From Candidatus Actinomarinales bacterium (lineage in GTDB: Bacteria > Actinomycetota > Acidimicrobiia > Actinomarinales > Actinomarinaceae), in NCBI GenBank assembly GCA_004213405.1, contig SGYR01000002.1:2133-66132 (forward strand): a stretch of DNA of 64,000 nt, read 5' to 3'. Position 1 is the stretch's first letter; each line of letters begins with the position of its first letter. The translations under genes and the position numbers were made by a program. Shown piece after piece: positions 28,997-62,135 of this stretch. The notes below the pieces were generated by a model. That model was not told the DNA's origin. It did not search any database and saw nothing but the letters and a program-made list of their open reading frames with translations.

Positions 28997-29632
28997 TTAT
29001 ATGTCTTTTAAATTATTCTTTTTCCATTCATCTATTTTTTGATGATTTCCGGACAAAAGCACCTCTGGTACTTCCTTATTTTTAAAGATTTCAGGTCTTG
29101 TATAGACAGGATAATCAATTTTATTATCTGTAAAAGTTTCACTTTTTAATGATTCAGGATTACCTAACACATCTGGAATTTTCCTAATCAACGCTTCTAA
29201 CAAATACAAAGCTGGCACTTCTCCCCCAGAAACAACAGATTGACCAATTGATATTTCATAATCAGAATGAATTTCTAAAATTCTTTGATCATAACCCTCG
29301 TATCTACCGCATACCAAATTAATTGACTTGTATTCAAGTAATTCACTTATAAGGTTTTCATTTAATTGTTGTCCTGATGGGGTAAGAAAAATATTAATAT
29401 CTGCCTTGCTGGAAGTTATAGCTTTGTCTAAAGGTTCTGGCATCAAAACCATTCCTGGTCCACCGCCATATGGAGCATCATCAACTTGTTTATAGGTTCC
29501 TATGCCAAAATCTCTAAGGTTTGTTGAATTTATAGCTACTAAATTATTTTTTAATGCTTGATTAATAATCCCGGTATTTTTCCATTCTTCAATTAGATTT
29601 GGAAATAATGTTATTACATTGTAAGAATTCAT
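28997..29632 (-). CDS. trmD: tRNA (guanine37-N1)-methyltransferase
   Basis: ITLFPNL, DDAPYGGGPGMVL, CGRYEGYDQR, SIGQSVVSGGEVPA and LLSGNH. Confidence 0.95.
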   Translation of the reverse strand: MNSYNVITLFPNLIEEWKNTGIINQALKNNLVAINSTNLRDFGIGTYKQVDDAPYGGGPGMVLMPEPLDKAITSSKADINIFLTPSGQQLNENLISELLEYKSINLVCGRYEGYDQRILEIHSDYEISIGQSVVSGGEVPALYLLEALIRKIPDVLGNPESLKSETFTDNKIDYPVYTRPEIFKNKEVPEVLLSGNHQKIDEWKKNNLKDI

Positions 29633-31464
29633 TTTTTTTCTAGAGTATTTTTTGTTTCGCTGAATTTTGTATATAGAGTGTTTCTCAAAATTGGATTTTT
29701 ATTTTCAGACTCAATTATTTGAATAAATTGATCTTCAGTTGTTTCTTGCCCATGATCTGCTCCTGAAGCTCTGCTAATGTTTTCATTGATCAAAGTACCA
29801 CCTAAATCATTAACACCAGCATGAAGGAGTTTGCCTGCTCCATCATGACCCAATTTCACCCAGCTTGCTTGAATGTTGTCTATTGAATTTACAAAGTAAA
29901 TTCGCGCTAATGAATGAATAAGAACTACCTCATCCCAAGTAGGTCCTGGCATACTTTTACCTTGTAAGTAAATAGGAGAACCCATATGTACAAAAGGAAG
30001 GGGTACAACTTCAGTAAATCCATTAGTTTTGCTTTGAACATTTTTAATTAATGAAAAATGATTAACCCAAGAATCTATATCATCAATATGTCCAAACATA
30101 ATTGTTGCTGTAGATTTTATCCCTAAGTTATGAGCTACTTCCATTACATATGCCCATTGTGAAGAAGTTATTTTATCAGGGCAAAGATATTTTCTAACTC
30201 TATCGTCTAATATCTCGGCCGCAGTACCGGGAAGTGTATTTAGTCCAGCTTTTTTTAACAGGCTTAAGTACTCTTCAACACTCAAACCAATAGTCTCTGC
30301 ACCTTGCCAAATTTCTAAAGGAGTGAAACCGTGAATATGCATTTCTGGAACAGAAGCTTTTATATCTTCTACCATTTTTAAATAAAACTCTCCCGTATAG
30401 TCAGGATGAATGCCGCCTTGTAAACACACTTCTGATGCACCCATATCATATGCTTCGACACTTCTTTCAACTACTTCTTGTATGTCAATGGTGTATGGTT
30501 TTTCTTTTAAATTTAAACTATTAGGACCTTTAGAAAATCCACAAAAACCACATTTGTAATAGCATTGATTCGTATAATTAATATTTCTATTCTTTACATA
30601 AGAAACATTATTTCCGTTTTTTAAAAAATTTAACTCATTAGCAACATTTGCAATATCATTTATTTTTTCTCCTGCGGTATTAAACAATACTCTCAGATCA
30701 TCATTATTAATTTGATATCCATCTAATACCCTTTTCAATATTGAGTCAATTTCAGAATGGTTGATTTGACTTTTATTGTTAAAGACAAAATTATTTAAAT
30801 TTGGGATATTTTTCCCACTACCAGGAGACCAACTTGTCTCTTTTCTTCTAAAACCTCTGACATTTCTAGTTTTTAAGAATCTAAAAAATCTTTCTTTATC
30901 AAATTCTTCTCTTGCCTCATCAATAGAAAATACGGGAGAAAGCAAAGTTCGCTCATAGAAATTTAGACCTTCTAGATTTTGAAGTTCTAATATCTGTTCG
31001 GAACTCCAATCCCTGAGGAGTAAATCTGAAACTCCTGCATTAGCAAATTCAATTGCTTCCTCAATTGTTTCAACGTATGTCGATGTTATAAAATTTGTTT
31101 TTGAGTTGATAGATTTAAGGAATTGTAGTTCTGAATTAGTAGAAATTAAAATTGTGTGTGGCTTTAGTCTATCGATAACCTCTAATGCGATTTCAATATT
31201 ATTTTTAAAAATGTAAATCAATCTTTTTGGATGAACAGATTTAAATTCTTTCCAGTTTTCATCAGTAACAATCCATACGTCTGAATTTATGGAGATATCC
31301 TTTGATACTGTTTGAAATTCCTTATTATGTAAATTATCTGTATTTACTGATACATCACTTTTTATTAAGAATGTAGAAGTTCCTTCTTTTTTTCTTGAAT
31401 TTAAATATATTTCGTTGTCGTTATCACATGGTCTGATTCGAAGAAAAGAAATGTTATTGTTCAT
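29629..31464 (-). CDS. cofH: FO (7,8-didemethyl-8-hydroxy-5-deazariboflavin) synthase subunit CofH with an unassigned ~240-aa N-terminal extension
   Basis: The C-terminal ~370 aa are CofH-like: VSYVKNRNINYTNQCYYKCGFCGF (radical-SAM CxxxCxxC), VCLQGGIHPD, HIHGFTP, LPGTAAEIL and NDLGGTLINENISR. I set the start to ATG 31464 (MNNNISF), which overlaps the cofG stop by 11 nt. Residues 1 to about 240 match nothing I recognise. Confidence 0.85.
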   Translation of the reverse strand: MNNNISFLRIRPCDNDNEIYLNSRKKEGTSTFLIKSDVSVNTDNLHNKEFQTVSKDISINSDVWIVTDENWKEFKSVHPKRLIYIFKNNIEIALEVIDRLKPHTILISTNSELQFLKSINSKTNFITSTYVETIEEAIEFANAGVSDLLLRDWSSEQILELQNLEGLNFYERTLLSPVFSIDEAREEFDKERFFRFLKTRNVRGFRRKETSWSPGSGKNIPNLNNFVFNNKSQINHSEIDSILKRVLDGYQINNDDLRVLFNTAGEKINDIANVANELNFLKNGNNVSYVKNRNINYTNQCYYKCGFCGFSKGPNSLNLKEKPYTIDIQEVVERSVEAYDMGASEVCLQGGIHPDYTGEFYLKMVEDIKASVPEMHIHGFTPLEIWQGAETIGLSVEEYLSLLKKAGLNTLPGTAAEILDDRVRKYLCPDKITSSQWAYVMEVAHNLGIKSTATIMFGHIDDIDSWVNHFSLIKNVQSKTNGFTEVVPLPFVHMGSPIYLQGKSMPGPTWDEVVLIHSLARIYFVNSIDNIQASWVKLGHDGAGKLLHAGVNDLGGTLINENISRASGADHGQETTEDQFIQIIESENKNPILRNTLYTKFSETKNTLEKK

Positions 31465-32575
31465 TGTGTTCTTTTGGATATCCATCTGTATCAATAATAT
31501 TATTAACTTTTTCAAAAATTTTACTATTTAACCATTCTTTTTTTATAAATTCGGGATAAACGGGTAACCTCTTTTTTAGAACTTGACCTGTACTTGAAAT
31601 ATCTAATTTTAATTTATTTATATTTGGCCATAAATGATCTGGATTTACCCAATCAATAGTTAATGGAGATATTCCACCTAGATCATTAATGCCACTATTT
31701 AAAAATATTGTTATATCGGGTGAAAGATTTGGTGGAACTTGAAGAGATATATGTGAAGGGGCGTAAATTCTAGTTGTGGCAATTATTCTTAAAAATAAAT
31801 CATTTGTTATTTCAGAACTATTCTTCATTAATGTATTTTTCTTTGCTCTGAAATTTTGTAATATTACTTCCTGAATTGCAGAGTTCTTTTTTACATAATC
31901 AATTAAATTTGATATATCATTTACAATTTCTTCTTTTGTTGGGGTTAAACCAAGAAGTAATCCAGTTGTGACTGGATATTTTTCTTCTAATGCATTGTTA
32001 AGGGTATCCAACCTTAAATCAATATATTTAGTATCTGTTTTGTAATGAGCTTTTCCCTTATCGTATATATTTTTTGAAAATGACTCAATCATAACCCCAC
32101 CAGATGGTGAGTATTTTCTTAACTCCTTAATCTCTTGTCTGCTCATTAAACCAGGGTTGGCGTGAGGAAAAAGATTAAATTTATCATTTACAACCTTCAT
32201 TGAACTAATTAAATAATCATGAGTTGAGGAATGGCCTAATTCTTTAAGTTGGGTTAAAGCAAAATCCCATTTGAGCTCTGGCTTATCTCCTAAAGTAAAC
32301 AAAGCTTCATAGCAACCAGCTTCATCACCAGCTTCTGCTATCGAGAGAACCTCTTCTTGATTTAAATAAGTTCCACCCTCTTTTGGAGATTTTACAAATG
32401 TACAATATCCACAATTATCTCTACACATTGTTGTTAGTGGAATAAAAACTTTAGGACTATATGTTATTTTGTCGCCAAAGTAATTTATTTTCTTCTCAAA
32501 AGCATTAGATAACAGTTCTTCAGTTGAAACTGCTCCAAAGATGGAATCATTAATTTTTCTTGTTAAATCTGTCAT
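31454..32575 (-). CDS. cofG: FO synthase subunit CofG
   Basis: VFIPLTTMCRDNCGYCTF (radical-SAM cluster motif of CofG), HANPGLM, VTTGLLLGL and INDLGGISPLT. Confidence 0.9.
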   Translation of the reverse strand: MTDLTRKINDSIFGAVSTEELLSNAFEKKINYFGDKITYSPKVFIPLTTMCRDNCGYCTFVKSPKEGGTYLNQEEVLSIAEAGDEAGCYEALFTLGDKPELKWDFALTQLKELGHSSTHDYLISSMKVVNDKFNLFPHANPGLMSRQEIKELRKYSPSGGVMIESFSKNIYDKGKAHYKTDTKYIDLRLDTLNNALEEKYPVTTGLLLGLTPTKEEIVNDISNLIDYVKKNSAIQEVILQNFRAKKNTLMKNSSEITNDLFLRIIATTRIYAPSHISLQVPPNLSPDITIFLNSGINDLGGISPLTIDWVNPDHLWPNINKLKLDISSTGQVLKKRLPVYPEFIKKEWLNSKIFEKVNNIIDTDGYPKEHNEQ

Positions 32576-41305: not shown

Positions 41306-41694
41306 TCTTTAAACTGAATTTTATTATTGTACGGGAGCACATCGTCGAATTTATATTTTTCAAAACTGTCCTTGTGAACAACAATTACATCCTCAACACC
41401 AAACTCTGACATTCGCTGCCTGGAAACACCACAAGGAAATATTGCTTCTTCATCTGCATCAATACATGCTACAGCTAATATATCAATTTTTGTTTCACCT
41501 TCTGAAATGGCTTTGAGTACAGCTACATCCTCTCCACAAACAGTTGCTGGATAAGATACATTTTCTATATTGCAACCTGTATATACATTTCCTGAATCTG
41601 TAATAAGTGCTGCTCCAACTCTAAAATTTGAATATGGTGCATAAGCTTTTTTTGCAGTATCTCTAGCTAATTGAGCTAATTCTTGATCGTTCAT
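41302..41694 (-). CDS. cdd: cytidine deaminase (homotetrameric type) with one zinc-ligand substitution
   Basis: AYAPYSNFRVGAAL, GCNIEN and CGE (catalytic Glu). The PCGxCRQ box reads PCGVSRQ (TCC Ser codon, verified in the DNA). Confidence 0.82.
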   Translation of the reverse strand: MNDQELAQLARDTAKKAYAPYSNFRVGAALITDSGNVYTGCNIENVSYPATVCGEDVAVLKAISEGETKIDILAVACIDADEEAIFPCGVSRQRMSEFGVEDVIVVHKDSFEKYKFDDVLPYNNKIQFKD

Positions 41695-44336
41695 GATTTG
41701 TTTATCAACTCTTCAAAATCTGCTTTAGTTTTTGTAAACACTCTTGATCCAGAACCTGGCTCCATAGTAACCCCATATAAAACATCACCAGCATGCATAG
41801 TCTGCTGTTGGTGTGTAACAATAATATATTGAGCATCTCCCTTTACATGCTTTAATAAGTTAATCATTCTATGTAAATTAGCATCATCGAGTGCAGCTTC
41901 AACTTCATCAAGTATATAAAAAGGGCTTGGGAATGACTTAAATATAGAGAACAAGAATGCTATTGCAGCTAATGATCTTTCCCCACCAGATAATAAACTT
42001 AATTTCTTAACCTTTTTACCTTTAGGTTGTACCGAAATATCAATTCCAGTTTCTAAAATATTTTCTTTATCTGTGAATGACAAAGATCCTTTTCCTCCAG
42101 GGAACAAAGTTTCAAATATTTCAGAAAAATGTACTGAAATTGAATTAAAAGAAGACTCAATTCTAAATGATATTTCATTTTCAATATCTTTAATGTGTGA
42201 ATGCAATTCTTTTTTGGCTAAATTTAAGTCTTCTATGTTTCCTGTTATTTCTTCATGTCTTGAATTTAAGGTTTCAAAATCTTCTTTAGCTAAATAATTT
42301 ACTGTACCTATATTTTCTAATTGAGTCTCATAATTTTTTATTTCATTTTCTAAAGTATGATGAATCAATCCATCAATTTGAACTTGAACAAGACTTTCGT
42401 CATTCAAACCATAAATATTTTTTAAAGTAGAAAAATGAGAAGAAGTAGAAACTTGATTTTCAGATAGTTTAATTACTACTGCGGTTTTTTCCTCTTTTAT
42501 ATCAAAATAATTTTTATTTAACTGTTCAATTTCTGAATCAATTTTCTGAATTTTTTTATTAGTATTTCCATACTTATCATCAAACTCTTCAGATTTTTGA
42601 GCTAATAAATTACTAGTTTTATTTGTAAATATAATAAAGTCTTTTATTTCAGAAACAAGCTTTTCTAAATCTGATTTTGAAGTGGCATTTTTAGTAGATG
42701 AAATTTTTTCTTTTTCATTAAGAAATTCATTATTTTGTTCCGTAAGATTTTTGATTCTTTCTTGAGAAGTAACTAATTGGTTAGAAATTGAAGTTATTTG
42801 ATTTTCTAAATTTTCAATCTGTTTTTCTAAATCAATCTTCTGATTATTTATATCAATTTTGAACTCTTCATTTTGATTAATTCCAGAAAGCAATACTTCT
42901 TTTTGACTTAATTCTCTTTCCATAGATTCATTCTTAGAAGTTATTTGATCTATTTTTTCTTTTGATGAGTTAAATTCCCTATTCAATATATTTTGATGAA
43001 AAGTAACATATTCATCTTTTGAGGAAATATTAAATTCAGTGCTTTTAATATCATTATTAAATTTCTGTAAAAGGTCTTCTGAATTTTTAACATCGCTCTC
43101 CCACTTACTAAGTTCAAGATTTAGTACTCCTAAATCTTGTGATGTTTCAGATATGTTCTTTTGTAATGACTTAATTTCATTTTCTAGCAAAGCTTCATTT
43201 ACTTCTTTTGATGCAGAAGACTTCTTAATAACAGACTCGAGTTGAGTTTTTAAATCATCATAAGTTGATTGAAGATTCTTTAAAGAATATTGTTTAGACA
43301 CCAACTGATTAGAAAGCATATTTATCTGGTCTGAATTTTGATCTATTTTATTTGAAATTTTATTAATTTGCTCTATATTCCTAAAATCTTCACGTTCTAA
43401 ATTATCTTTTCTTTCATTTGCCACTTGAGCAATTGTTCTTAATTGTTCAGTAACATTGTTAATTTTTGAAGAATATTCTTTGAATGTAGAGCCAATGGAA
43501 ACTCCGTCGCCAAGTTCATTATTTATTCTTAGTTTTTCTTTTTTCAAATTTTCAACTTTTAACTCAATAGAATCAATTGAATTTGAAAGTTCATTTTCTT
43601 TGATTTTTAAATCTTCATATTCATTTTGAAATTTTCTATAAAGCAAAGTATGTAGTTTTATATTTCTATCTTTTAATTGATTTGTTACATCTTCATGAAG
43701 CCTTGCCTGCTCAGCTTGTTCCTGTAGAGGCTTCAGTTGTTTTTTAATCTCACGTAAAACATCTTTAGCTCTTTTGATTTCTTTATCACCAGATTCAATT
43801 CTCTTAAGCGCTTTTTCTTTTTTCGATCTTAAAGGTAAAATTCCTGAAGCTTCTTCAATTGTTAATCTGTGATCCTCAGGCTTTGAATTCAATATTTCAG
43901 CGATTTGACCTTGTGAAATTATGATATGTTGCTGTTTACCTATACCTACGTCACTTAAAAACTCTTGAATATCTAATAATCTGCAATTTAAGCCATTCAT
44001 AAAGTATTCAGAAGTACCATCTCTAAACAGTTTTCTTCCTATGGAAATTTCACTATTTCCGTTAAATTTTTGTTCATCAACTTCGAAATTTAAATAGACC
44101 TCAGCAAATCCTTTTTCTGATAATTTTTCAGTACCAGCAAATATCACATCTTCCATCTTGTTAGTTCTAAGAGTGGCGGGGCTTTGGGTTCCCAATACCC
44201 AAGATATTGCATCTACTACATTTGACTTGCCAGAACCATTAGGTCCAACAATAACATTTACTTCGTCTGATAATTGAATAGTTGTCTTTTCAGCAAAAGA
44301 CTTGAACCCATTAATATCTAATGATTTTAAATACAT
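41691..44336 (-). CDS. smc: SMC chromosome-partition ATPase, short (881 aa), no recognisable hinge
   Basis: N-terminal head MYLKSLDINGFKSFAEKTTI...IVGPNGSGKSNVVDAISWVLG. C-terminal head LSLLSGGERSLAAIAFLFSIF (signature), FYILDEVEAALD (Walker B) and IVTHQ. The middle ~530 aa are uninterrupted heptad-like Glu/Lys/Asn/Ser sequence. In the conserved rnc-mutM-smc position. Confidence 0.85.
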   Translation of the reverse strand: MYLKSLDINGFKSFAEKTTIQLSDEVNVIVGPNGSGKSNVVDAISWVLGTQSPATLRTNKMEDVIFAGTEKLSEKGFAEVYLNFEVDEQKFNGNSEISIGRKLFRDGTSEYFMNGLNCRLLDIQEFLSDVGIGKQQHIIISQGQIAEILNSKPEDHRLTIEEASGILPLRSKKEKALKRIESGDKEIKRAKDVLREIKKQLKPLQEQAEQARLHEDVTNQLKDRNIKLHTLLYRKFQNEYEDLKIKENELSNSIDSIELKVENLKKEKLRINNELGDGVSIGSTFKEYSSKINNVTEQLRTIAQVANERKDNLEREDFRNIEQINKISNKIDQNSDQINMLSNQLVSKQYSLKNLQSTYDDLKTQLESVIKKSSASKEVNEALLENEIKSLQKNISETSQDLGVLNLELSKWESDVKNSEDLLQKFNNDIKSTEFNISSKDEYVTFHQNILNREFNSSKEKIDQITSKNESMERELSQKEVLLSGINQNEEFKIDINNQKIDLEKQIENLENQITSISNQLVTSQERIKNLTEQNNEFLNEKEKISSTKNATSKSDLEKLVSEIKDFIIFTNKTSNLLAQKSEEFDDKYGNTNKKIQKIDSEIEQLNKNYFDIKEEKTAVVIKLSENQVSTSSHFSTLKNIYGLNDESLVQVQIDGLIHHTLENEIKNYETQLENIGTVNYLAKEDFETLNSRHEEITGNIEDLNLAKKELHSHIKDIENEISFRIESSFNSISVHFSEIFETLFPGGKGSLSFTDKENILETGIDISVQPKGKKVKKLSLLSGGERSLAAIAFLFSIFKSFPSPFYILDEVEAALDDANLHRMINLLKHVKGDAQYIIVTHQQQTMHAGDVLYGVTMEPGSGSRVFTKTKADFEELINKS

Positions 44337-52571: not shown

Positions 52572-53771
52572 ATGTCCTTAATAAATCTTGAATTAGAAAA
52601 TGAACAAATAATCAATGATTATTTTAAAGATCTTTGTTGTGACAATTACACAATTCCTTTTTTATTAGGTGGGCAGTCAAATGCAGATAATGCATTAAAT
52701 CAACTAAACATTAATAAATACGCTACAAAAAGAAACAACGTATACCCAAAAGATTCAAGAGGTTCATCTTATTTATCCCCCTATATACGACATGGTTTAC
52801 TTAGTCTCTCTGATGTATGGAAAGCTGTTGAGAAATTTGAATACAAAGATAAAACTAAATTCCAAGATGAATTGCTTTGGCAAGAGTTTTCAAGACATTT
52901 ATATGCAATAGTTGGTAAAAAATCAAGAAATTATCTAAATTACAAAATAGAAAATCCTGATTCGAATGCAGATATTTATAAAAATATGAATTGTGTATCG
53001 ACTATTGAAGAAGAGCTTGAAAAAACGGGTTATATGGTTAACCAAACAAGAATGTGGTATGCATCTCATAATTCTTTAAGGGTAGGTAACGACTGGAATC
53101 AATATGAAGACTACATGTTTCAACATTTATTAGATGGGTCTCGATTTGCAAACAGATTAGGATGGCATTGGGTCATGGGATCACAAACAGGAAAGCCATA
53201 TGGATTTTCCAAATTCCAAGTTGAAAAAAGGGCACCACAGTTATGTAATAATTGTGAATTAAAATATGACTGCCCTATTCAAGAATGGCCACAAACAAAT
53301 ATTTCTGAAAAATTAAGTAATGATTTTAAAGTAGATGAAGAAAAAGTTTTTGGTCCAAAAAACATAAGAGAAAATAACAGAAATAAACCATCCTTTGTGT
53401 GGATTACAGGTGAATCTATTGGAGACAATGATCCAGCAATGAGTCATTATCACGAAATACCAGTAATTTTTATATTTGATATAAAGTTGCTAAGCAAATT
53501 GCAATTATCAACAAAGAGAATTAATTTTTTACTTGATTGCCTTAAAGAAATAAATAACAAAAGGGAGCTGCAGGTACATTTAACCAATCCAGATGATTAT
53601 TTACGAAATAAATATTTTGCATCAACATTTGCACCAGTGCCAAAATACAAAAAAATTACAGAAAGAAATATACCATCTATAGAATTCCCGGCATTACGAC
53701 TTGCAGATCCCATTAATTTCTACCCTACAAGTTTCAGTTCATGGAGAAAAAAGATAAAGTTAAATATATGA
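52572..53771 (+). CDS. cryptochrome/photolyase-family flavoprotein with apparent permuted domain order (FAD domain N-terminal, alpha/beta-like domain C-terminal) and a 4-Cys set
   Basis: Residues ~30-235 carry FAD-domain boxes: GGQSNA...L, SSYLSPYIRHGLLS, ELLWQEFSRHLY, TGYMVNQTRMWYAS, LLDGSRFANRLGWHWVMGS and TGKPYGF. Cys141 plus C225-x2-C228-x5-C234 form a 4-Cys set. Residues ~273-330 (PSFVWITGESIGDNDPAM...IPVIFIFD...TKRINFLLDCLKEIN) resemble the photolyase N-terminal alpha/beta domain start (lvWfr.DLRl.DNpAL...v..vfi.dp...r..Fl...L..L). Confidence 0.68.
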   Translation: MSLINLELENEQIINDYFKDLCCDNYTIPFLLGGQSNADNALNQLNINKYATKRNNVYPKDSRGSSYLSPYIRHGLLSLSDVWKAVEKFEYKDKTKFQDELLWQEFSRHLYAIVGKKSRNYLNYKIENPDSNADIYKNMNCVSTIEEELEKTGYMVNQTRMWYASHNSLRVGNDWNQYEDYMFQHLLDGSRFANRLGWHWVMGSQTGKPYGFSKFQVEKRAPQLCNNCELKYDCPIQEWPQTNISEKLSNDFKVDEEKVFGPKNIRENNRNKPSFVWITGESIGDNDPAMSHYHEIPVIFIFDIKLLSKLQLSTKRINFLLDCLKEINNKRELQVHLTNPDDYLRNKYFASTFAPVPKYKKITERNIPSIEFPALRLADPINFYPTSFSSWRKKIKLNI

Positions 53772-54190
53772 GAAGATATATAATTTTTACATTCTTGTTT
53801 TTTCACAATTATATTTATATCTATTCAAATGGCAGAATAGGAAAATTTCTACAAGGAAGGCCGTGTTTAATTCTTTTCTCAACTGGTGCCAAGACTAATT
53901 TGTTAAGAAAAAATGTTCTTGTGTTCATGAAAGAAGGTGATGAGATTTGTCTTGTAGCATCTAAAGGTGGAAGCCCTACTAATCCAGGCTGGTATCATAA
54001 TTTAAAAGCTAATCCTAAATGTGAAATTCAAATTGGAAGAAAGAAATACACTGCAGTTGCAAAAGAAGTATTTGATGAAGAGCGTGAAGACTGGTGGTCA
54101 AAAATGGATTACATGAATAATGGTGGATATTCTAATTACCAACAAAGAACAAAACGTAAAATACCTGTATTAATTTTAAATTTGTCTTAG
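53768..54190 (+). CDS. deazaflavin (F420H2)-dependent nitroreductase/quinone reductase family protein (DDN/FDOR-A type)
   Basis: LILFSTGAKTNLLRKNVLVFMKEGDEICLVASKGGSPTNPGWYHNLKANPKCEIQIG.......A.EV..EERE.WW is the PF04075-type pattern (G.kSG..R...L.....dg..vvASkGG....P.WyhNL.AnP.v.vq.g). ATG 53768 overlaps the upstream TGA (ATGA). The N-terminus is hydrophobic. Confidence 0.75.
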   Translation: MRRYIIFTFLFFHNYIYIYSNGRIGKFLQGRPCLILFSTGAKTNLLRKNVLVFMKEGDEICLVASKGGSPTNPGWYHNLKANPKCEIQIGRKKYTAVAKEVFDEEREDWWSKMDYMNNGGYSNYQQRTKRKIPVLILNLS

Positions 54191-54243: not shown

Positions 54244-54879
54244 TTAAAGGCTATTAAAAACTGTTTCTATGATATCTATAGATAAATTATCAACGATTAA
54301 GTCAGCTTTATTTAATTCGTCTTTTGAAAATATACCTCTATCAATTGCAACTACAAAAGAACCCGATGCCTTTCCAGAAGAAATGCCAGGAGGACTGTCT
54401 TCAATAATTATATTTTTAGTAGTTTGAAGTATACTGATCGCTTTATTATATATATCTGGATATGGTTTATTTCTTTCAACTTGATCACCACCAATAACAT
54501 ATGAGAAATAATTAAAAATGTTTGCTTTTATTAATTTATTTTTTAATAACTCATAAGGGCTTGCTGAGACACATGCCGACGTCCATCCCCTGTTGTTTGT
54601 CTCCTCGAGTAATATTTTTGCATCTTGATACATTAGTTTTTCGTTCAACGTCACTTCTATAATTTTTCCAAGAGATGCCATAGTTTTCTCAAAATTTTCT
54701 AAATCTACATTTTTTGCATAAAAGCTGTGAACTAATCTATCGTCAATACCCACCCATTGTCTAGTTTCCTCTTTAGATATCTCAAGTCCAAAATTACTTA
54801 GATGTTCTTTCCATGCTAAACCATATGATGTTTCGGTATCCATTAAAGTGCCATCGCAGTCCCAATAAATACCGTTCAT
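54244..54879 (-). CDS. HAD-superfamily hydrolase (beta-phosphoglucomutase-like subfamily IA)
   Basis: Motif I YWDCDGTLMDTE (DxDxT), motif II SAS, a motif III Lys region and motif IV EDSPPGISSG. Confidence 0.8.
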   Translation of the reverse strand: MNGIYWDCDGTLMDTETSYGLAWKEHLSNFGLEISKEETRQWVGIDDRLVHSFYAKNVDLENFEKTMASLGKIIEVTLNEKLMYQDAKILLEETNNRGWTSACVSASPYELLKNKLIKANIFNYFSYVIGGDQVERNKPYPDIYNKAISILQTTKNIIIEDSPPGISSGKASGSFVVAIDRGIFSKDELNKADLIVDNLSIDIIETVFNSL

Positions 54880-54885
54880 AAATTT

Positions 54886-55968
54886 TTAACCTAGTTTGCT
54901 TTGTATGTCTTTAGCGCTTTTTAAAGCTATTCCGTCTGATCCCTCTGTACTCCAATGGGTAACACAATTTTTAGCCTCTTCTATCATGTCATTTAAAAGT
55001 TCGAACTTACTTTTACCAATATTTTGCCAAAGATATAATGCATGGCTTCCAGGAATTGTATTAATTTCATTTAAATATAAATTTTCATTGTGAAGTAAAA
55101 AATCTACTCTTGATATTCCTCTTATTTCAATTTGTTCAACGAATAATGTAAGTATTTTTTTAATTTGAGCTTCAATTTCTGTACTAATAGTTGCAGGTAA
55201 TTCTCTTTTTGATCCTTCTAATCCTCCATTATCAAGATATTTATCATTGTATGAAAACAATTCAAAACTACTTGTCCTAATTGGTTTTTCAATTTCTGAG
55301 AAATCTAAGTTTGGGTATGTCCTGATTCCAATAAGAAGATCGTTAGACTTTTCAAGGAATTTTTCTACTGTTGCTCCTTGACTGTAAATTTTTGAATTTC
55401 TAGAGAGTTTTAAAGCTGTTTCGTAGTCTTCAACAACCTCTACTCCGATAGAGGATCCTCCAAATCTAGGTTTTAAAATATAAGGTCCAGAAAAATTAGG
55501 TTTAGTATTTTTGCTAACTAAGTGTTTATCTAAAACAGGTATTCCAATTTCTTTCATTAAGGTAAAGAAAACGTACTTATCCATACCTATCTGTGAAGTA
55601 GTCAATGAGGGACCTGTATAATTAATATTTAGTAAACTTAACAAACTTTGAAGTGTTCCATCTTCCCCTGGCCCTCCATGACAAGCATTAACTGCTACTT
55701 CAAATGAAATTTTTTTCTTTTTTAAATAAAATCCTGGCTCAGAATCATATTTTATTGTTAATTCTTTCTTGAAAATATCGTCATTATCAACAAAATCTAT
55801 TGATTCTAAGGCATTATTAACCAAATACCATTTATTGTCTTTTGACCAATAAATATTTTTAACATCATACTTATTAGATAAAATCCTGGAGGACTGTAGT
55901 CCGGTCAATATAGATATATCATGCTCGTCAGATGGGCCACCAAATATTACGGCAATTGATTCTGTCAT
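54886..55968 (-). CDS. ddl: D-alanine--D-alanine ligase
   Basis: IAVIFGGPSDEHDISILTG, HGGPGEDGTLQSLL, ATP-grasp core (ILKPRFGGSSIGV) and RVDFLL....LYLNEINTIPG. Confidence 0.93.
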   Translation of the reverse strand: MTESIAVIFGGPSDEHDISILTGLQSSRILSNKYDVKNIYWSKDNKWYLVNNALESIDFVDNDDIFKKELTIKYDSEPGFYLKKKKISFEVAVNACHGGPGEDGTLQSLLSLLNINYTGPSLTTSQIGMDKYVFFTLMKEIGIPVLDKHLVSKNTKPNFSGPYILKPRFGGSSIGVEVVEDYETALKLSRNSKIYSQGATVEKFLEKSNDLLIGIRTYPNLDFSEIEKPIRTSSFELFSYNDKYLDNGGLEGSKRELPATISTEIEAQIKKILTLFVEQIEIRGISRVDFLLHNENLYLNEINTIPGSHALYLWQNIGKSKFELLNDMIEEAKNCVTHWSTEGSDGIALKSAKDIQSKLG

Positions 55969-55971
55969 ATT

Positions 55972-57495
55972 TTAAGGATGATGATCTGGTAAATCGTTTT
56001 CAAATAATACAATATCATTTTCATTCACAACAGAGTTTAGATAAGAAACAGCTAAATCTCTATTTTTAAAATATTTTACTGGAATATTATTTTCTTCAAA
56101 TGCAAGCATTAACGGTCCCTTGTTGGTGTAACCAACGATAAGGGCTTCATCAATAACTTCACTTGCATAATGAGCAAATTCATAATTATAACTAAATTGT
56201 TCAGAACCTAGCTCGACCATTCCAGGAGTTATAAGATACTTTTTACCAGAAGAATTAAAATCTTCTAATGTTTCAAGCGAAGAAATAAATGAAATAGGAT
56301 TCGAATTAAATGAATTATCTATAATTGTTTGACCCATACTTCCCTGAAGAATAGTTTGACGATGATCAGTTTTTTCTAACTCACCAAGACTTTCGAGATA
56401 AGATTTAACATTAAGTTCTAGTGCAACCATAACCCCAACTGATAAGGATATAGATAATTGTAGAATTTTGGGGCCTTCAATATTACCTATAAATTCTCCT
56501 CCAATGTAAACACTATGTAATTTATTTTTGTAGTCTACAAAAACTGCAGCTCTTTCAGAAGTCGTAGAGCAATCTATAACCATCTTCTGGGCAGTCCAAA
56601 GTCTTGCTTGATTCAACAAAAGTGGATCATCACCATTGATAACTACAGAACCAGTTAAGTCGACTATTTCAGACTTTGCATCAAGTATATTTTCCAAAGT
56701 TTTCATTCTTTCAAGGTGAACTGGTGCTATTCCTGTTATTACTGATATGTGAGGTCTGACCCATGAACACATTTCTCTGATCTCTCCAAAACCATAAGTA
56801 CCCATTTCAATAATTGAAATTTCGTCATCATTTTTTAGATTTTCATTGATTGCTTTTGCTATACCTAAACGATTATTAAAACTTTCTGGTGTTACAAAAG
56901 TTTTATTTTTTTGAGAAAGAATCTGAGACAATATATTTTTAGTAGTAGTTTTTGAGTATGAACCAGTAATTGCAATTATTGGGCCATCAAACTTTTTTAA
57001 TTCATTTTCTGCATCAATAATAAATTTTTCGGATTTATTTTTTTCATAACCCTTTGTAAACCTTAGAGCTTGGTCATAGACATAAAAAGAAAATAAATTA
57101 GCAACTAATGCAATAAAGTAACCTAAATCCATTGTTAAAGATACAATAGAAATCAAAACTATAAGAATGCAATAAATTATATTTAGCCTTTTAAGCCTTT
57201 CGGTTAGGTTCACTTTGGTTGTTCTGTATTTAAAATCTAATCCAAGTGGTGTTACTAAAGTTAAGACTGATAGTAATAATGCTGGATATGGTGACCATAA
57301 ACTTAATAAAGCCAGGATGATAGCTAGAAAAAAATAAAGATTATTAAATGGGACTAACCTAACCCATCTGAAATAAAATTTAGTGACATATCCCGAGATA
57401 TAATGTTCTCTTTGAGCAATTCTGCCCCACCTTATTGAATTCAAGCATGAACTCAAAGTAAGCAAAATTAAAACAAATATATAAAGTAAATTCAT
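55972..57495 (-). CDS. MurF-type Mur ligase with the N-terminal UDP-binding domain replaced by a ~145-aa multi-TM domain
   Basis: Residues 1 to about 145 form four or five hydrophobic segments. These are followed by PIIAITGSYSKTTTKNIL (P-loop, with Ser where Gly precedes Lys), IIEMGTYGFGEI, ITGIAPVHLE, NGDDP, DNSFNSNP (MurF hallmark DDSYNANP) and PGMVELGSEQ (MurF GDM.ELG). Confidence 0.75.
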   Translation of the reverse strand: MNLLYIFVLILLTLSSCLNSIRWGRIAQREHYISGYVTKFYFRWVRLVPFNNLYFFLAIILALLSLWSPYPALLLSVLTLVTPLGLDFKYRTTKVNLTERLKRLNIIYCILIVLISIVSLTMDLGYFIALVANLFSFYVYDQALRFTKGYEKNKSEKFIIDAENELKKFDGPIIAITGSYSKTTTKNILSQILSQKNKTFVTPESFNNRLGIAKAINENLKNDDEISIIEMGTYGFGEIREMCSWVRPHISVITGIAPVHLERMKTLENILDAKSEIVDLTGSVVINGDDPLLLNQARLWTAQKMVIDCSTTSERAAVFVDYKNKLHSVYIGGEFIGNIEGPKILQLSISLSVGVMVALELNVKSYLESLGELEKTDHRQTILQGSMGQTIIDNSFNSNPISFISSLETLEDFNSSGKKYLITPGMVELGSEQFSYNYEFAHYASEVIDEALIVGYTNKGPLMLAFEENNIPVKYFKNRDLAVSYLNSVVNENDIVLFENDLPDHHP

Positions 57496-58199
57496 CTTTT
57501 TATAATTTCCACTATTTTTTCTGCACTGCTTCTAAGCATATTGTGACCTTCGTCAGGAATTATCGTTAATTCAGAATCACGAATTATACTGCTTGAGTCG
57601 ATACCAACTTTTACAGGTACCACCAAATCATCTTCTCCATAAATAAGTTCAACTTTTGTAGAAATTTTTGGAAGAATTTCAGTCAAATCATCATTCACTG
57701 CCATAACTAATGTATCTTTTAAAACTTTATTAGCATTTCTGTAATCTTCAGAACCATATTTATTTTTTAATTCATCAAGCCTGCGGTCACTAATAATATT
57801 TAATTTATTCATAAATTTATATAATTTAAAAAAAGAAAAACCACTGTTCGGTTTTAATTTTCTAATAAGCGGTGATGCAATAATCACTATTTTTCTGTAA
57901 TTTTGCATTTGTGAAAGGTGTACTGCTATTCTTCCTCCGAAAGAATGGCCAACAATAACATCGACTGATTCTGGGATTAATTTAATAAGGTACTCTGCAT
58001 AGCTTCTTGGTGAAAAACTTTTTGTAAATGGTACAGACTTGCCAAATCCAGGTATATCAATAGTTATAAAATCAAAGTGCGTTTCAATCTTGTTAAAATC
58101 TTTACCGCTTGTACCCCATCCATGTAAGAAACACACTTTAGGATTCTCTGAATTTACATTGGCAAATGTTAAGTCATCATTCAATATTTTATACGCCAT
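57492..58199 (-). CDS. alpha/beta-fold hydrolase
   Basis: FLHGWG, nucleophile elbow VGHSFGG and C-terminal DEGHNML (catalytic His). Overlaps the Mur ligase gene by 4 nt. Confidence 0.75.
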   Translation of the reverse strand: MAYKILNDDLTFANVNSENPKVCFLHGWGTSGKDFNKIETHFDFITIDIPGFGKSVPFTKSFSPRSYAEYLIKLIPESVDVIVGHSFGGRIAVHLSQMQNYRKIVIIASPLIRKLKPNSGFSFFKLYKFMNKLNIISDRRLDELKNKYGSEDYRNANKVLKDTLVMAVNDDLTEILPKISTKVELIYGEDDLVVPVKVGIDSSSIIRDSELTIIPDEGHNMLRSSAEKIVEIIKR

Positions 58200-58567
58200 T
58201 AGTTAAGTCCTAGCCCTATTGTCTGAATTGCTCTGATTTCCATTCCCATCAAAAAGAGTAATGCAAATGACCAATAAAGATGATAATTCACTTTCATTTC
58301 GTTTCTGTAAATATAAAGAAATGTCAAAATGAAAAGATTAACAATATTATAAAATAGGCTGAATGAGCCTATTTCATTGTTTTGTGTATAGTAAATAACA
58401 ACTAAAACTTGTAAGAGCACAGAAAAACAAGACAGCAGAATTAATTTGTTTGAAAAATTAAAAGAAAGTTCAAATTTGGAAAAATGAATTGCTAAAAATA
58501 TCAACCCTACAAAACCACAAATAACAAGGCTTATATAAGAAGGCAATTCTAAAAAATAAAACTCCAT
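58199..58567 (-). CDS. small polytopic membrane protein (4 predicted TM), unknown function
   Basis: 122 aa, almost entirely hydrophobic segments. Its stop overlaps the hydrolase start by 1 nt, making it the first gene of the ddl-containing array. Confidence 0.5.
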   Translation of the reverse strand: MEFYFLELPSYISLVICGFVGLIFLAIHFSKFELSFNFSNKLILLSCFSVLLQVLVVIYYTQNNEIGSFSLFYNIVNLFILTFLYIYRNEMKVNYHLYWSFALLFLMGMEIRAIQTIGLGLN

Positions 58568-61163: not shown

Positions 61164-62135
61164 ATGATTAAAAATTTATCTCCATCAAGAGCATCTCAAT
61201 TTAAAACATGTCCAAAGCAATTTAAATTTGCAAATGTAGATAAATTAAAAGAGCCAACAAATGAAGTGCAGGCTAAAGGAACAACCGTCCATCAAGCTCT
61301 CGAAGACTTGTTTGACCTACCTAAAGAAGACAGGAATATTGAAAAACTCCATAATTTATTTCGTGAAGCATGGACGAAAGTTAGAGGAACAGATGAACAT
61401 CATGATCTTTTTTCTAGTGTCGAAGAAGAGAGAGAATGGGGTGTTGATGGACTAAAGCTGCTTAATAACTATATGACAATAGAGGACCCAACGAGTTTTA
61501 ACCCCTTAGAAAGAGAGCGTTGGGTCAGAGGAAGTATAGAAGATTTAAATTTAAGAGGAATTCTTGACAGAATGGATAGAAATGAAAAAGGCGAACTAAT
61601 AATTGTTGATTATAAAAGTGGTAAAGCTCCAATGGCTAAATATAAAGAACCAAGATTTTTTGCACTTAAATTATACGCTTTATTGATAAAGGAAGAACTT
61701 GGGGAAATGCCTGCAGAATTGAAATTAATATATCTCAAAAACTCCACTATTCATACATTAAAAATCAATGAAGAAGACTTAATAGAATCAAAAAAAGAAA
61801 TTCTTGAAATTTGGGAGAATATCAAAAAAGCTTATGAGAATGATGATTTTCCGGCAATAAAAAATACACTGTGCGACTGGTGTTACTATAAACCGATTTG
61901 TCCAGTATTTAATGACAACCCTCCAGATACTGAAGGGCTAAGAATGATAAATGAATCCATTTCAGATTTAGAAGAGGAAATTGAGGTACTAGATATGTCT
62001 AAAAACGAAAATGAAGTTCCAAAGGAAAGTCCAATTGGAAGCAAAGATAAAGAACAAATTAAAATTCAGATAGCAGAGTTAGAGGATCAAAAAAATAATA
62101 TCCAAGCAGAAATAGAAAAACTTTTACGGAAATAA
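61164..62135 (+). CDS. PD-(D/E)XK nuclease, RecB/Cas4-like with 4-Cys (Fe-S) arrangement and C-terminal coiled-coil tail
   Basis: SPSRASQFKTCPKQF (first Cys), GILDRMD....IIVDYKSGK (D...D/ExK core) and CDWCYYKPIC (C-x2-C-x5-C), as in AddB/Cas4 iron-staple nucleases. The last ~70 aa are charged and heptad-like. Confidence 0.8.
   Translation: MIKNLSPSRASQFKTCPKQFKFANVDKLKEPTNEVQAKGTTVHQALEDLFDLPKEDRNIEKLHNLFREAWTKVRGTDEHHDLFSSVEEEREWGVDGLKLLNNYMTIEDPTSFNPLERERWVRGSIEDLNLRGILDRMDRNEKGELIIVDYKSGKAPMAKYKEPRFFALKLYALLIKEELGEMPAELKLIYLKNSTIHTLKINEEDLIESKKEILEIWENIKKAYENDDFPAIKNTLCDWCYYKPICPVFNDNPPDTEGLRMINESISDLEEEIEVLDMSKNENEVPKESPIGSKDKEQIKIQIAELEDQKNNIQAEIEKLLRK

Follow-up and report, generated by a model that had tools for sequence, protein, structure and literature searches.

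We conclude with moderate confidence that a 507-amino-acid (aa) protein of Candidatus Actinomarina (class Acidimicrobiia, ~31% GC content) is the Acidimicrobiia form of MurF, a membrane-embedded ligase that would add D-alanyl-D-alanine (D-Ala-D-Ala) to the tripeptide precursor of peptidoglycan. The gene occupies positions 55972–57495 on the minus strand of a 64,000-nucleotide (nt) stretch of contig SGYR01000002.1 (assembly GCA_004213405.1), hereafter called the window, whose proteins are 98–99% identical to their counterparts in Ca. Actinomarina single-cell genomes.

In the reaction we propose, a D-alanine–D-alanine ligase (Ddl) encoded by the adjacent gene would make D-Ala-D-Ala, and the central (ATP) and C-terminal (dipeptide) domains of the membrane ligase would carry out the usual acyl-phosphate ligation onto the peptidoglycan tripeptide precursor. 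A five-helix membrane domain would take the place of the soluble domain that binds UDP-N-acetylmuramic acid (UDP-MurNAc)-peptide, with cytoplasm-facing arginine, histidine, and aromatic residues (RW.R.AQREHY...F..RW, P.G, and T.R) binding the nucleotide or diphosphate end of the acceptor, presumably the usual UDP-MurNAc-tripeptide. The ligase would be held at the membrane, where MraY consumes the product.

Catalytic part and membrane domain of the ligase

The catalytic part comprises the Pfam domains Mur_ligase_M (PF08245, 94 bits; residues 176–317) and Mur_ligase_C (PF02875, 30.9 bits; residues 378–498). Compared with curated protein families, the window ligase matched TIGR01143 (murF) best, with 178.7 bits over profile positions 65–403 only, against 60.8 bits for MurD, the best non-MurF family. 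The window ligase and six other members of the family scored between 168 and 200 bits with TIGR01143 and matched only from position 62–69 on. A phmmer search of the PDB placed the MurF enzymes of five species first (E-values 1.7e-22 to 4.7e-16), followed by a MurE–MurF chimera, MurD (9e-07), cyanophycin synthetase (6e-05), and MurT (2.8e-04). Similarly, a Foldseek search with the AlphaFold2 model of the ligase returned MurF as the best match (E-values 1.4e-21 to 3.4e-18), with ~355–373 of the 507 residues aligned.

A neighbor-joining tree was built from the membrane ligases, 32 canonical MurFs taken from dcw (division and cell wall) clusters, MurE, and MurC. In this tree, the membrane ligases were monophyletic in 100 of 100 replicates and fell inside MurF, to the exclusion of MurE and MurC, in 95 of 100. 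An earlier note made from the letters of this DNA alone (the sequence-only reading) had taken the protein for a MurF-type ligase on account of short motifs (DNSFNSNP, PGMVELG, NGDD, and GSYSKTT); all four are in the translation, and the phylogenetic placement of the catalytic part bears the assignment out.

We assessed residue conservation in 68 ligase sequences sharing 33–100% identity. The P-loop, TGSYSKTTTK, spans residues 177–186 (56938–56967, minus strand, as for all ligase features given here) and contains the invariant K182 and T183; E230, H260, K274, and the pair H378-R379 are likewise invariant. The MurF-type box DNSFNSNP (residues 393–400; 56296–56319) has the family consensus DDTYNSNP, and both this box and PGMVELG align with the same boxes of T. 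maritima and P. aeruginosa MurF (DDTYNASP and DDSYNANP, respectively, for the former box). Invariant positions in these C-terminal boxes are D393, N397, N399, P400, P424, G425, E428, L429, and G430. The protein ends in the tail FENDLPDHHP (55975–56004; consensus [YF]ENDLPDH[YHF]P, followed by the stop codon), in which residues E499 to H505 and P507 are invariant and which forms the C-terminus in 53 low-GC and 55 high-GC loci.

The sequence-only reading had also singled out a serine in place of the nearly invariant glycine before the P-loop lysine. The serine is there, but it does not extend to the whole family: GSYSKT or GSYAKT occurs in 42 of 42 Actinomarinales (low-GC) sequences, whereas the other (high-GC) Acidimicrobiia carry GSYGKT or GSFGKT in 52 of 52, and the Ser/Ala form in none of the 52. 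The replacement of Gly by Ser is a lineage substitution of the Actinomarinales and not a feature of the family.

Relative to canonical MurF (E. coli 1GG4, A. baumannii 4QF5, P. aeruginosa 4CVM, and T. maritima 3ZL8), the membrane ligase has the same ATP-binding and C-terminal domains and retains the P-loop, the Mg-ligand Glu/His, the lysine at the carbamoyl-lysine position, and the DDxYNxNP and GxMxELG motifs. Unlike in these enzymes, a five-helix membrane domain stands where the soluble N-terminal substrate-binding domain (profile positions 1 to ~61) would be, the protein terminates in the invariant ENDLPDH.P, and its gene sits beside ddl and a coupled hydrolase gene, not between murE and mraY. 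In summary, residues ~160–507 are MurF by sequence, phylogeny, and fold, and the ligase descends from MurF but has no domain 1 and scores under the curated cutoff. Public naming is inconsistent: JGI and part of the NCBI records use MurF, and elsewhere the entry reads Mur ligase family protein.

Residues 1–168 (56992–57495) form the membrane domain, with five transmembrane (TM) helices by hydropathy and AlphaFold2, and the linker helix. Hydropathy places about five TM helices in residues 3–143 and leaves two K/R-rich loops, 22–46 and 86–103, on the same side as the catalytic part; because of the positive-inside rule, these loops and the catalytic part are predicted to be cytoplasmic. The AlphaFold2 model of the full-length ligase has a predicted local distance difference test (pLDDT) score of 91.8 and a predicted TM-score (pTM) of 0.85, with the TM helices above 90, and the N-terminal domain modelled alone reaches a pLDDT of 92.7. 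Helices were assigned to residues 2–18, 20–29, 36–47, 51–64, and 70–81, then, after a 17-residue loop, to 99–121, 127–134, and 136–168; the predicted cytoplasmic side holds two short helices and the 17-residue loop. Helix 136–168, 33 residues long, is continuous from the final TM segment to the start of the ATP domain at its first strand. Hydropathy, model confidence, and a murF profile match that begins at position 65 all confirm what had been noticed in the translation, namely that TM segments stand in place of MurF domain 1.

The loop between TM1 and TM2 carries the signature RW.R.AQREHY.......F..RW (R22–W44; 57364–57432), where R25, Q28, R29, E30, H31, Y32, F40, R43, and W44 are invariant. 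Further invariant residues are P83, G85, T98, and R100 in the TM3–TM4 loop and D141 and E151 in the last helix. A Pfam search with the N-terminal domain found no family, and a fold search against the PDB gave no significant match (best E-value 2). A profile of the domain matched only 428 of 1.84e9 representative proteins, nearly all at the N-terminus of ligases of this kind, the full-length proteins among them being 490–600 aa long. The N-terminal domain is thus confidently folded, conserved, and specific to the membrane-ligase family. The three domains of Mur ligases bind, from N- to C-terminus, the UDP-MurNAc-peptide, ATP, and the incoming amino acid (PMC10214165); it is thus the domain for acceptor recognition that has been replaced in the membrane ligase.

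Distribution of the family and the murF slot of the dcw cluster

Full-length homologues of ~500 aa that align from residue 1 onward occur in hundreds of genomes, with identities from 99% down to 33–39%. We scanned the GTDB species genomes with two peptides of the family, [YF]ENDLPDH and W[LSG]R[VI][AS]QREH, followed by tblastn confirmation. At least 569 confirmed stretches carry the ~500-aa architecture, almost all of them labelled Acidimicrobiia; the carriers include Microthrix, Spongiisociaceae chromosomes, and many soil and marine metagenome-assembled genomes (MAGs) of 54–72% GC. The best 120 matches to the protein P0116 were, without exception, ~370–510 aa long, and all but a few were near 500 aa.

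The records of eight loci (L057, L065, L073, L075, L085, L102, L105, and L109) with a typical hydrolase–ligase–Ddl trio name Acidobacteria, Gammaproteobacteria, Boseongicola, or Pseudonocardiales as the source, probably because contigs of Acidimicrobiia were mis-binned or mislabelled.

We sampled dcw clusters through conserved MraY motifs, obtaining nine from Acidimicrobiia, and looked in them for the conventional murF that the sequence-only reading had proposed to seek there. In all nine, murF is missing between murE and mraY; the cluster of Ca. Actinomarina is not among them. In an Acidimicrobiaceae locus (L118), the order is rsmH-ftsL-ftsI-murE-mraY-murD, and murE overlaps mraY by 4 nt. Similarly, murE adjoins mraY in an Acidimicrobiales locus (L115) and in a complete 3.97-Mb Acidimicrobiaceae chromosome (L194), and the murE–mraY gap is 39–136 nt in MedAcidi-G1, MedAcidi-G2B, MCMED-G02, a Tara MAG, the single amplified genome AG-410-I20, and Aldehydirespiratoraceae. 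In other Actinomycetota, namely Actinomycetes (including the low-GC Nanopelagicales and Bifidobacterium) and Thermoleophilia, nearly every sampled spanning locus has an interval of ~1.4–2.3 kb between murE and mraY that holds a canonical murF.

The rest of the pathway is present. Sampled Acidimicrobiia encode MurB, MurC, MurD, MurE, MraY, FtsW, and FtsI and thus need the step that adds D-Ala-D-Ala. Their MraY is ordinary-looking and passes the curated mraY model with 296 bits. Because the dcw clusters run from murE straight to mraY, the membrane ligase is probably the sole MurF of the class, Ca. Actinomarina included.

A side observation concerns the Acidimicrobiales MAG MFD06742 (L115, 4901–7267), in which mraY is separated from ftsW by only ~100 nt; murD, like murF, is missing there from its usual place, whereas in L118 murD follows mraY.

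A murF gene away from the murE–mraY interval and beside ddl is a feature shared with Firmicutes. In B. subtilis and S. aureus, a ddl–murF pair lies outside the dcw cluster and MurF is a soluble three-domain enzyme; we know of no coupled hydrolase for this pair. In two sampled Clostridia loci (L124 and L155), murE adjoins mraY. The ddl–ligase arrangement of Acidimicrobiia is probably independent of that of Firmicutes.

Neighboring genes and other features of the window

The ligase gene belongs to an array of five minus-strand genes, which the sequence-only reading had described as a ddl-centered candidate envelope-modification module. The same open reading frames (ORFs) are found at the same positions: a small membrane protein of 122 aa with 3–4 TM helices, the first gene of the array here (58199–58567); an α/β-fold serine hydrolase of 235 aa (Pfam Abhydrolase_6/1; 57492–58199); the ligase; Ddl, of 360 aa (Pfam Dala_Dala_lig_N and _C; 54886–55968); and a co-oriented HAD-IA phosphatase of 211 aa (Pfam HAD_2; 54244–54879). 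Pfam and NCBIfam agree with the earlier assignments of the GHSFGG hydrolase, the Mur ligase, Ddl, and the HAD protein. Neighbors overlap by 1–4 nt or are separated by 3–6 nt: the junction between the 122-aa gene and the hydrolase gene is TAATG (1-nt overlap), that between the hydrolase and ligase genes is ATGA (4-nt overlap), and gaps of 3 nt and 6 nt separate the ligase gene from ddl and ddl from the phosphatase gene, respectively. Contigs from metatranscriptome (RNA) runs cross all four junctions, which fits expression of the array as one transcript, although DNA carry-over is possible. Promoter and terminator scans were uninformative in this AT-rich DNA (27 sites found versus 26 expected). 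An inverted repeat with a 12-bp stem inside the 122-aa membrane gene (58349–58377) is terminator-like on both strands; with two terminator-like repeats found versus 1.8 expected in shuffles, it is probably a chance occurrence.

Conservation of the array within low-GC Ca. Actinomarina carries little information, because synteny there extends over the entire region and its flanks. We counted neighbors in 82 loci (L032–L113) from low-GC Actinomarinales and high-GC Acidimicrobiia, the earlier Actinomarina loci having been examined separately. The hydrolase gene lies upstream of the ligase gene in 81 of the 82, immediately adjoining it in the high-GC loci except for one truncated locus. Ddl is present in 78 of the 82, high-GC Acidimicrobiia included, and directly downstream of the ligase except in L071. 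The conserved core of the array is the hydrolase–ligase–Ddl trio. In the distantly related locus L032, the trio sits in the same neighborhood of L28, cold-shock, and RecG genes as in the window.

The two outer genes of the array do not share this conservation. The HAD phosphatase was found in all 22 low-GC loci of L032–L113 and in the earlier Actinomarina loci but in no high-GC locus; it is a neighbor only in Actinomarinales, and its earlier casting as a processing partner is not sustained. It matches PF13419 with 83 bits and has the DxD nucleophile of motif I (WDCDGTL) near its N-terminus, and all its equivalog scores are under their cutoffs. The 122-aa protein has three clear TM helices by hydropathy, and a Pfam search with it found no family. 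Weak homologues (27–43% identity) are encoded ~3.5 kb upstream of the hydrolase in about half of the high-GC loci; in L032, for instance, a short-chain dehydrogenase/reductase gene and a GAF histidine-kinase gene lie between the homologue and the hydrolase. The 122-aa gene is thus loosely linked to the trio outside Actinomarinales.

The casting of the hydrolase as a partner of the ligase has fared better. Its catalytic triad, Ser86 (in GHSFGG), Asp191, and His219, together with H26-G27-W28, is kept in at least 96 of 98 distinct orthologues, the HG motif is at the usual oxyanion-hole position, and the protein matches PF12697 with 51 bits. Across the class, most sampled loci show the 4-nt overlap between the hydrolase stop codon and the start codon of the ligase. 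With NCBIfam (three orthologues) and a PDB sequence search, the hydrolase gave only generic esterase, BioH, MenH, and PcaD-like matches far under the cutoffs. The catalytically intact hydrolase is translationally coupled to the ligase and probably acts with it. In two database representatives (P0329 and P0379), a single ORF joins the hydrolase to the membrane ligase, which reflects either natural fusion or a 1-nt indel in the 4-nt overlap.

The Ddl domains match PF01820 with 82.9 bits and PF07478 with 80.1 bits. The protein scored 200 bits with the D-Ala-D-Ala ligase model TIGR01205 (cutoff 245.65), versus 134 and 104 bits with the D-Ala-D-Ser and D-Ala-D-Lac models; judged by these profiles, it scores best as a D-Ala-D-Ala ligase. 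In a distant relative (locus L033, 6136–10703), the ddl gene downstream of the hydrolase–ligase pair is in fragments, with a Peptidase_M15 (VanX/VanY-type) gene and a DDE transposase gene nearby; the broken ddl could be due to gene decay or to a long-read assembly error.

Elsewhere in the window, several genes deserve mention. SMC (41691–44336, minus strand) is only 881 aa long and matches a profile of 1181 positions in two stretches, with head residues 2–487 corresponding to positions 1–497; it may have a shortened coiled coil in a streamlined genome. A photolyase/cryptochrome-like ORF of 399 aa (52572–53771, plus strand) matches the flavin adenine dinucleotide (FAD)-binding half of photolyases over residues ~43–223, at 55 bits and far under the cutoffs, with no antenna-domain match and ~175 unmatched C-terminal residues. 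Its end overlaps by 31 nt a gene of the deazaflavin-dependent nitroreductase family (53741–54190, plus strand), which passes its cutoff. Two radical-SAM ORFs (29629–32575, minus strand) are adjacent or overlapping, one of them with an FO-synthase-like CofH/MqnC C-terminal region. The radical-SAM, photolyase-like, and F420-type genes together suggest the use of a deazaflavin cofactor. Lastly, a Cas4-like PD-(D/E)XK nuclease (61164–62135, plus strand) scores 56 bits against a cutoff of 65 and has a long Glu/Lys-rich C-terminal tail; a PDDEXK_1 gene is found in the corresponding neighborhood of L032.

Alternative readings and significance

The sequence-only reading had left two options, a membrane-tethered ligase as the only MurF or a paralogue with another acceptor. 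Sequence, tree, and fold of the MurF type, adjacency to ddl, and nine murF-less dcw clusters out of nine favor the former. Several points weigh against it. All seven tested members fall under the curated TIGR01143 cutoff of 288.6 bits, a shortfall that matches the ~60 absent profile positions plus divergence. In the neighbor-joining tree, the membrane ligases have a long branch and an unstable sister group, as would also be expected of a neofunctionalized paralogue. The replacement of the P-loop Gly by Ser in Actinomarinales is a further point, and the hydrolase partner and the ENDLPDH.P tail, which have no counterpart in canonical MurF, hint at chemistry beyond the textbook reaction. As for the status of sole MurF, the murF-less dcw clusters and the membrane ligase were seen in separate assemblies, none with both, and the absence of murF concerns the murE–mraY slot of the nine clusters. 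A pattern for the MraY block WWN..PA.[IV]FMGDTG in AT-rich codons retrieved 52 loci, none from Actinomarina. One of these searches' candidates for an Actinomarina dcw cluster, L251 (31% GC), was rejected, as it belongs to another lineage and has murF. A class-specific pattern, HHHFEL.GWPETTVI, yielded a single 45%-GC fragment in metagenomes and no Actinomarina dcw cluster.

The alternative that survives best, although we regard it as rather unlikely, keeps the ligase as the sole MurF-type enzyme but changes its acceptor. MraY would first move phospho-MurNAc-tripeptide to undecaprenyl phosphate; then, at the inner membrane face, lipid I- or lipid II-tripeptide would receive D-Ala-D-Ala from the ligase. 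In this scheme, the TM domain would be the binding site of the polyprenyl-diphosphate and the hydrolase an editing, processing, or release partner. The loss of the UDP-MurNAc-binding domain in favor of an integral five-helix module, and not a simple anchor, speaks for this, as does the occurrence of the N-terminal domain nowhere else, i.e., its specialization for this ligase. The invariant Arg-rich and aromatic residues at the predicted membrane–cytoplasm interface would suit a diphosphate head group, but the same surface could bind UDP. MurT/GatD offers a precedent of a Mur-type ligase with an adjacent partner acting on lipid II; however, membrane tethering has other precedents, such as MurD–FtsW chimeras (PMC10214165). 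The ordinary MraY of Acidimicrobiia also argues against this alternative, which would require MraY to use the tripeptide efficiently.

We consider it quite improbable that a conventional murF exists elsewhere and that the membrane ligase is a paralogue, attaching D-Ala-D-Ala, another dipeptide, or an amino acid to a different membrane acceptor, with the hydrolase in a processing role. The scores under the MurF cutoff, the long, unstable branch, the novel N-terminal domain and C-terminal tail, and the dedicated hydrolase could all be read in this way. Yet none of the nine Acidimicrobiia dcw clusters has murF in the slot that other Actinomycetota use for it, and the ligase gene lies beside ddl in a neighborhood common to the window and L032. 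Moreover, the ligase is kept in the streamlined, ~1-Mb genomes of Actinomarina, in which redundant paralogues are unlikely, and part of the public records already names it MurF.

Highly improbable is a role outside peptidoglycan synthesis, as an amide ligase like CapB/PgsB, cyanophycin synthetase, or MurT, with a polymer made or decorated at the membrane and the Ddl-like ATP-grasp protein as partner. The pairing of an ATP-grasp gene with a Mur-ligase module recalls cyanophycin synthetase with its two catalytic modules, and a small membrane protein heads the array in the window, as would suit CapB/PgsB, a Mur-like ligase that is anchored in the membrane and has a small membrane protein as partner. 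However, the small membrane gene does not adjoin the trio outside Actinomarinales, the MurF-specific boxes are invariant, and the neighbor scores best as a D-Ala-D-Ala ligase. Each specific identity was also rejected on its own: cyanophycin synthetase at 33.3 bits with TIGR02068 (cutoff 850) and a PDB E-value of 6e-05 versus 2e-22 for MurF; MurT at 20.4 bits with NF045635 (cutoff 800), the neighbor being an α/β hydrolase and not a glutamine amidotransferase; and CapB/PgsB, none of whose models is among the profile matches of the ligase.

Finally, an upstream membrane ORF fused by a frameshift to a truncated murF, an outcome that the sequence-only reading had itself named as fatal, is refuted, because the same continuous ORF, aligning from residue 1 in homologues of 33–39% identity, recurs across single-cell genomes, MAGs, complete chromosomes, and metagenomes (31–72% GC), and AlphaFold2 shows one continuous helix across the junction.

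Precedents exist for parts of the architecture. Natural Mur chimeras, i.e., MurD–FtsW and MraY–MurG, hold a precursor enzyme covalently at the membrane (PMC10214165). These chimeras fuse two complete, recognizable enzymes, unlike the membrane ligase, in which an unfamiliar membrane part replaces a ligase domain.

MurT is a soluble protein with the Mur-ligase fold but without the canonical N-terminal domain, and works on lipid II with the glutaminase GatD, which is encoded next to it and co-expressed. It resembles the membrane ligase in pairing a domain-1-less Mur-fold ligase with an adjacent partner enzyme, and its structures 6FQB and 6GS2 are among the weaker PDB and Foldseek matches; unlike MurT/GatD, the partner here is an α/β hydrolase, and the profile similarity is 20 bits versus 179 for MurF. 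The poly-γ-glutamate synthetase CapB/PgsB combines a Mur-type ATP domain with a single N-terminal anchor and small membrane proteins and lacks the MurF C-terminal boxes. It is similar in being a membrane-anchored Mur-type amide ligase accompanied by small membrane proteins and differs from the five-helix domain found here. No system that we compared joins a novel integral-membrane domain in place of domain 1 with a coupled hydrolase. Literature searches on membrane-bound MurF or MurF in Acidimicrobiia returned nothing relevant, and we found no paper that discusses this family.

MurC to MurF are soluble three-domain enzymes and long-standing antibiotic targets. If the membrane ligase is the MurF of Acidimicrobiia, its structure accounts for the recurrent inconsistency in annotation between MurF and Mur ligase family protein, and curated MurF models could miss the MurF of this class in calls of pathway completeness. 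It raises the questions of how the acceptor is recognized without domain 1, whether the D-Ala-D-Ala step takes place on a lipid-linked intermediate, and whether tethering channels the product to MraY. Should the acceptor be lipid-linked, the textbook order of MurF followed by MraY would be altered, and the last step of stem-peptide synthesis would move from the cytosol to the membrane. In either case, a whole class of Actinomycetota, including some of the most numerous bacteria of the sea (Ca. Actinomarina and the MedAcidi groups), the filamentous Microthrix of wastewater, and symbionts of sponges, would possess a differently built MurF, distinguished by a membrane module without known relatives for substrate recognition, a dedicated hydrolase, and a site at the membrane near the next enzyme of the pathway.

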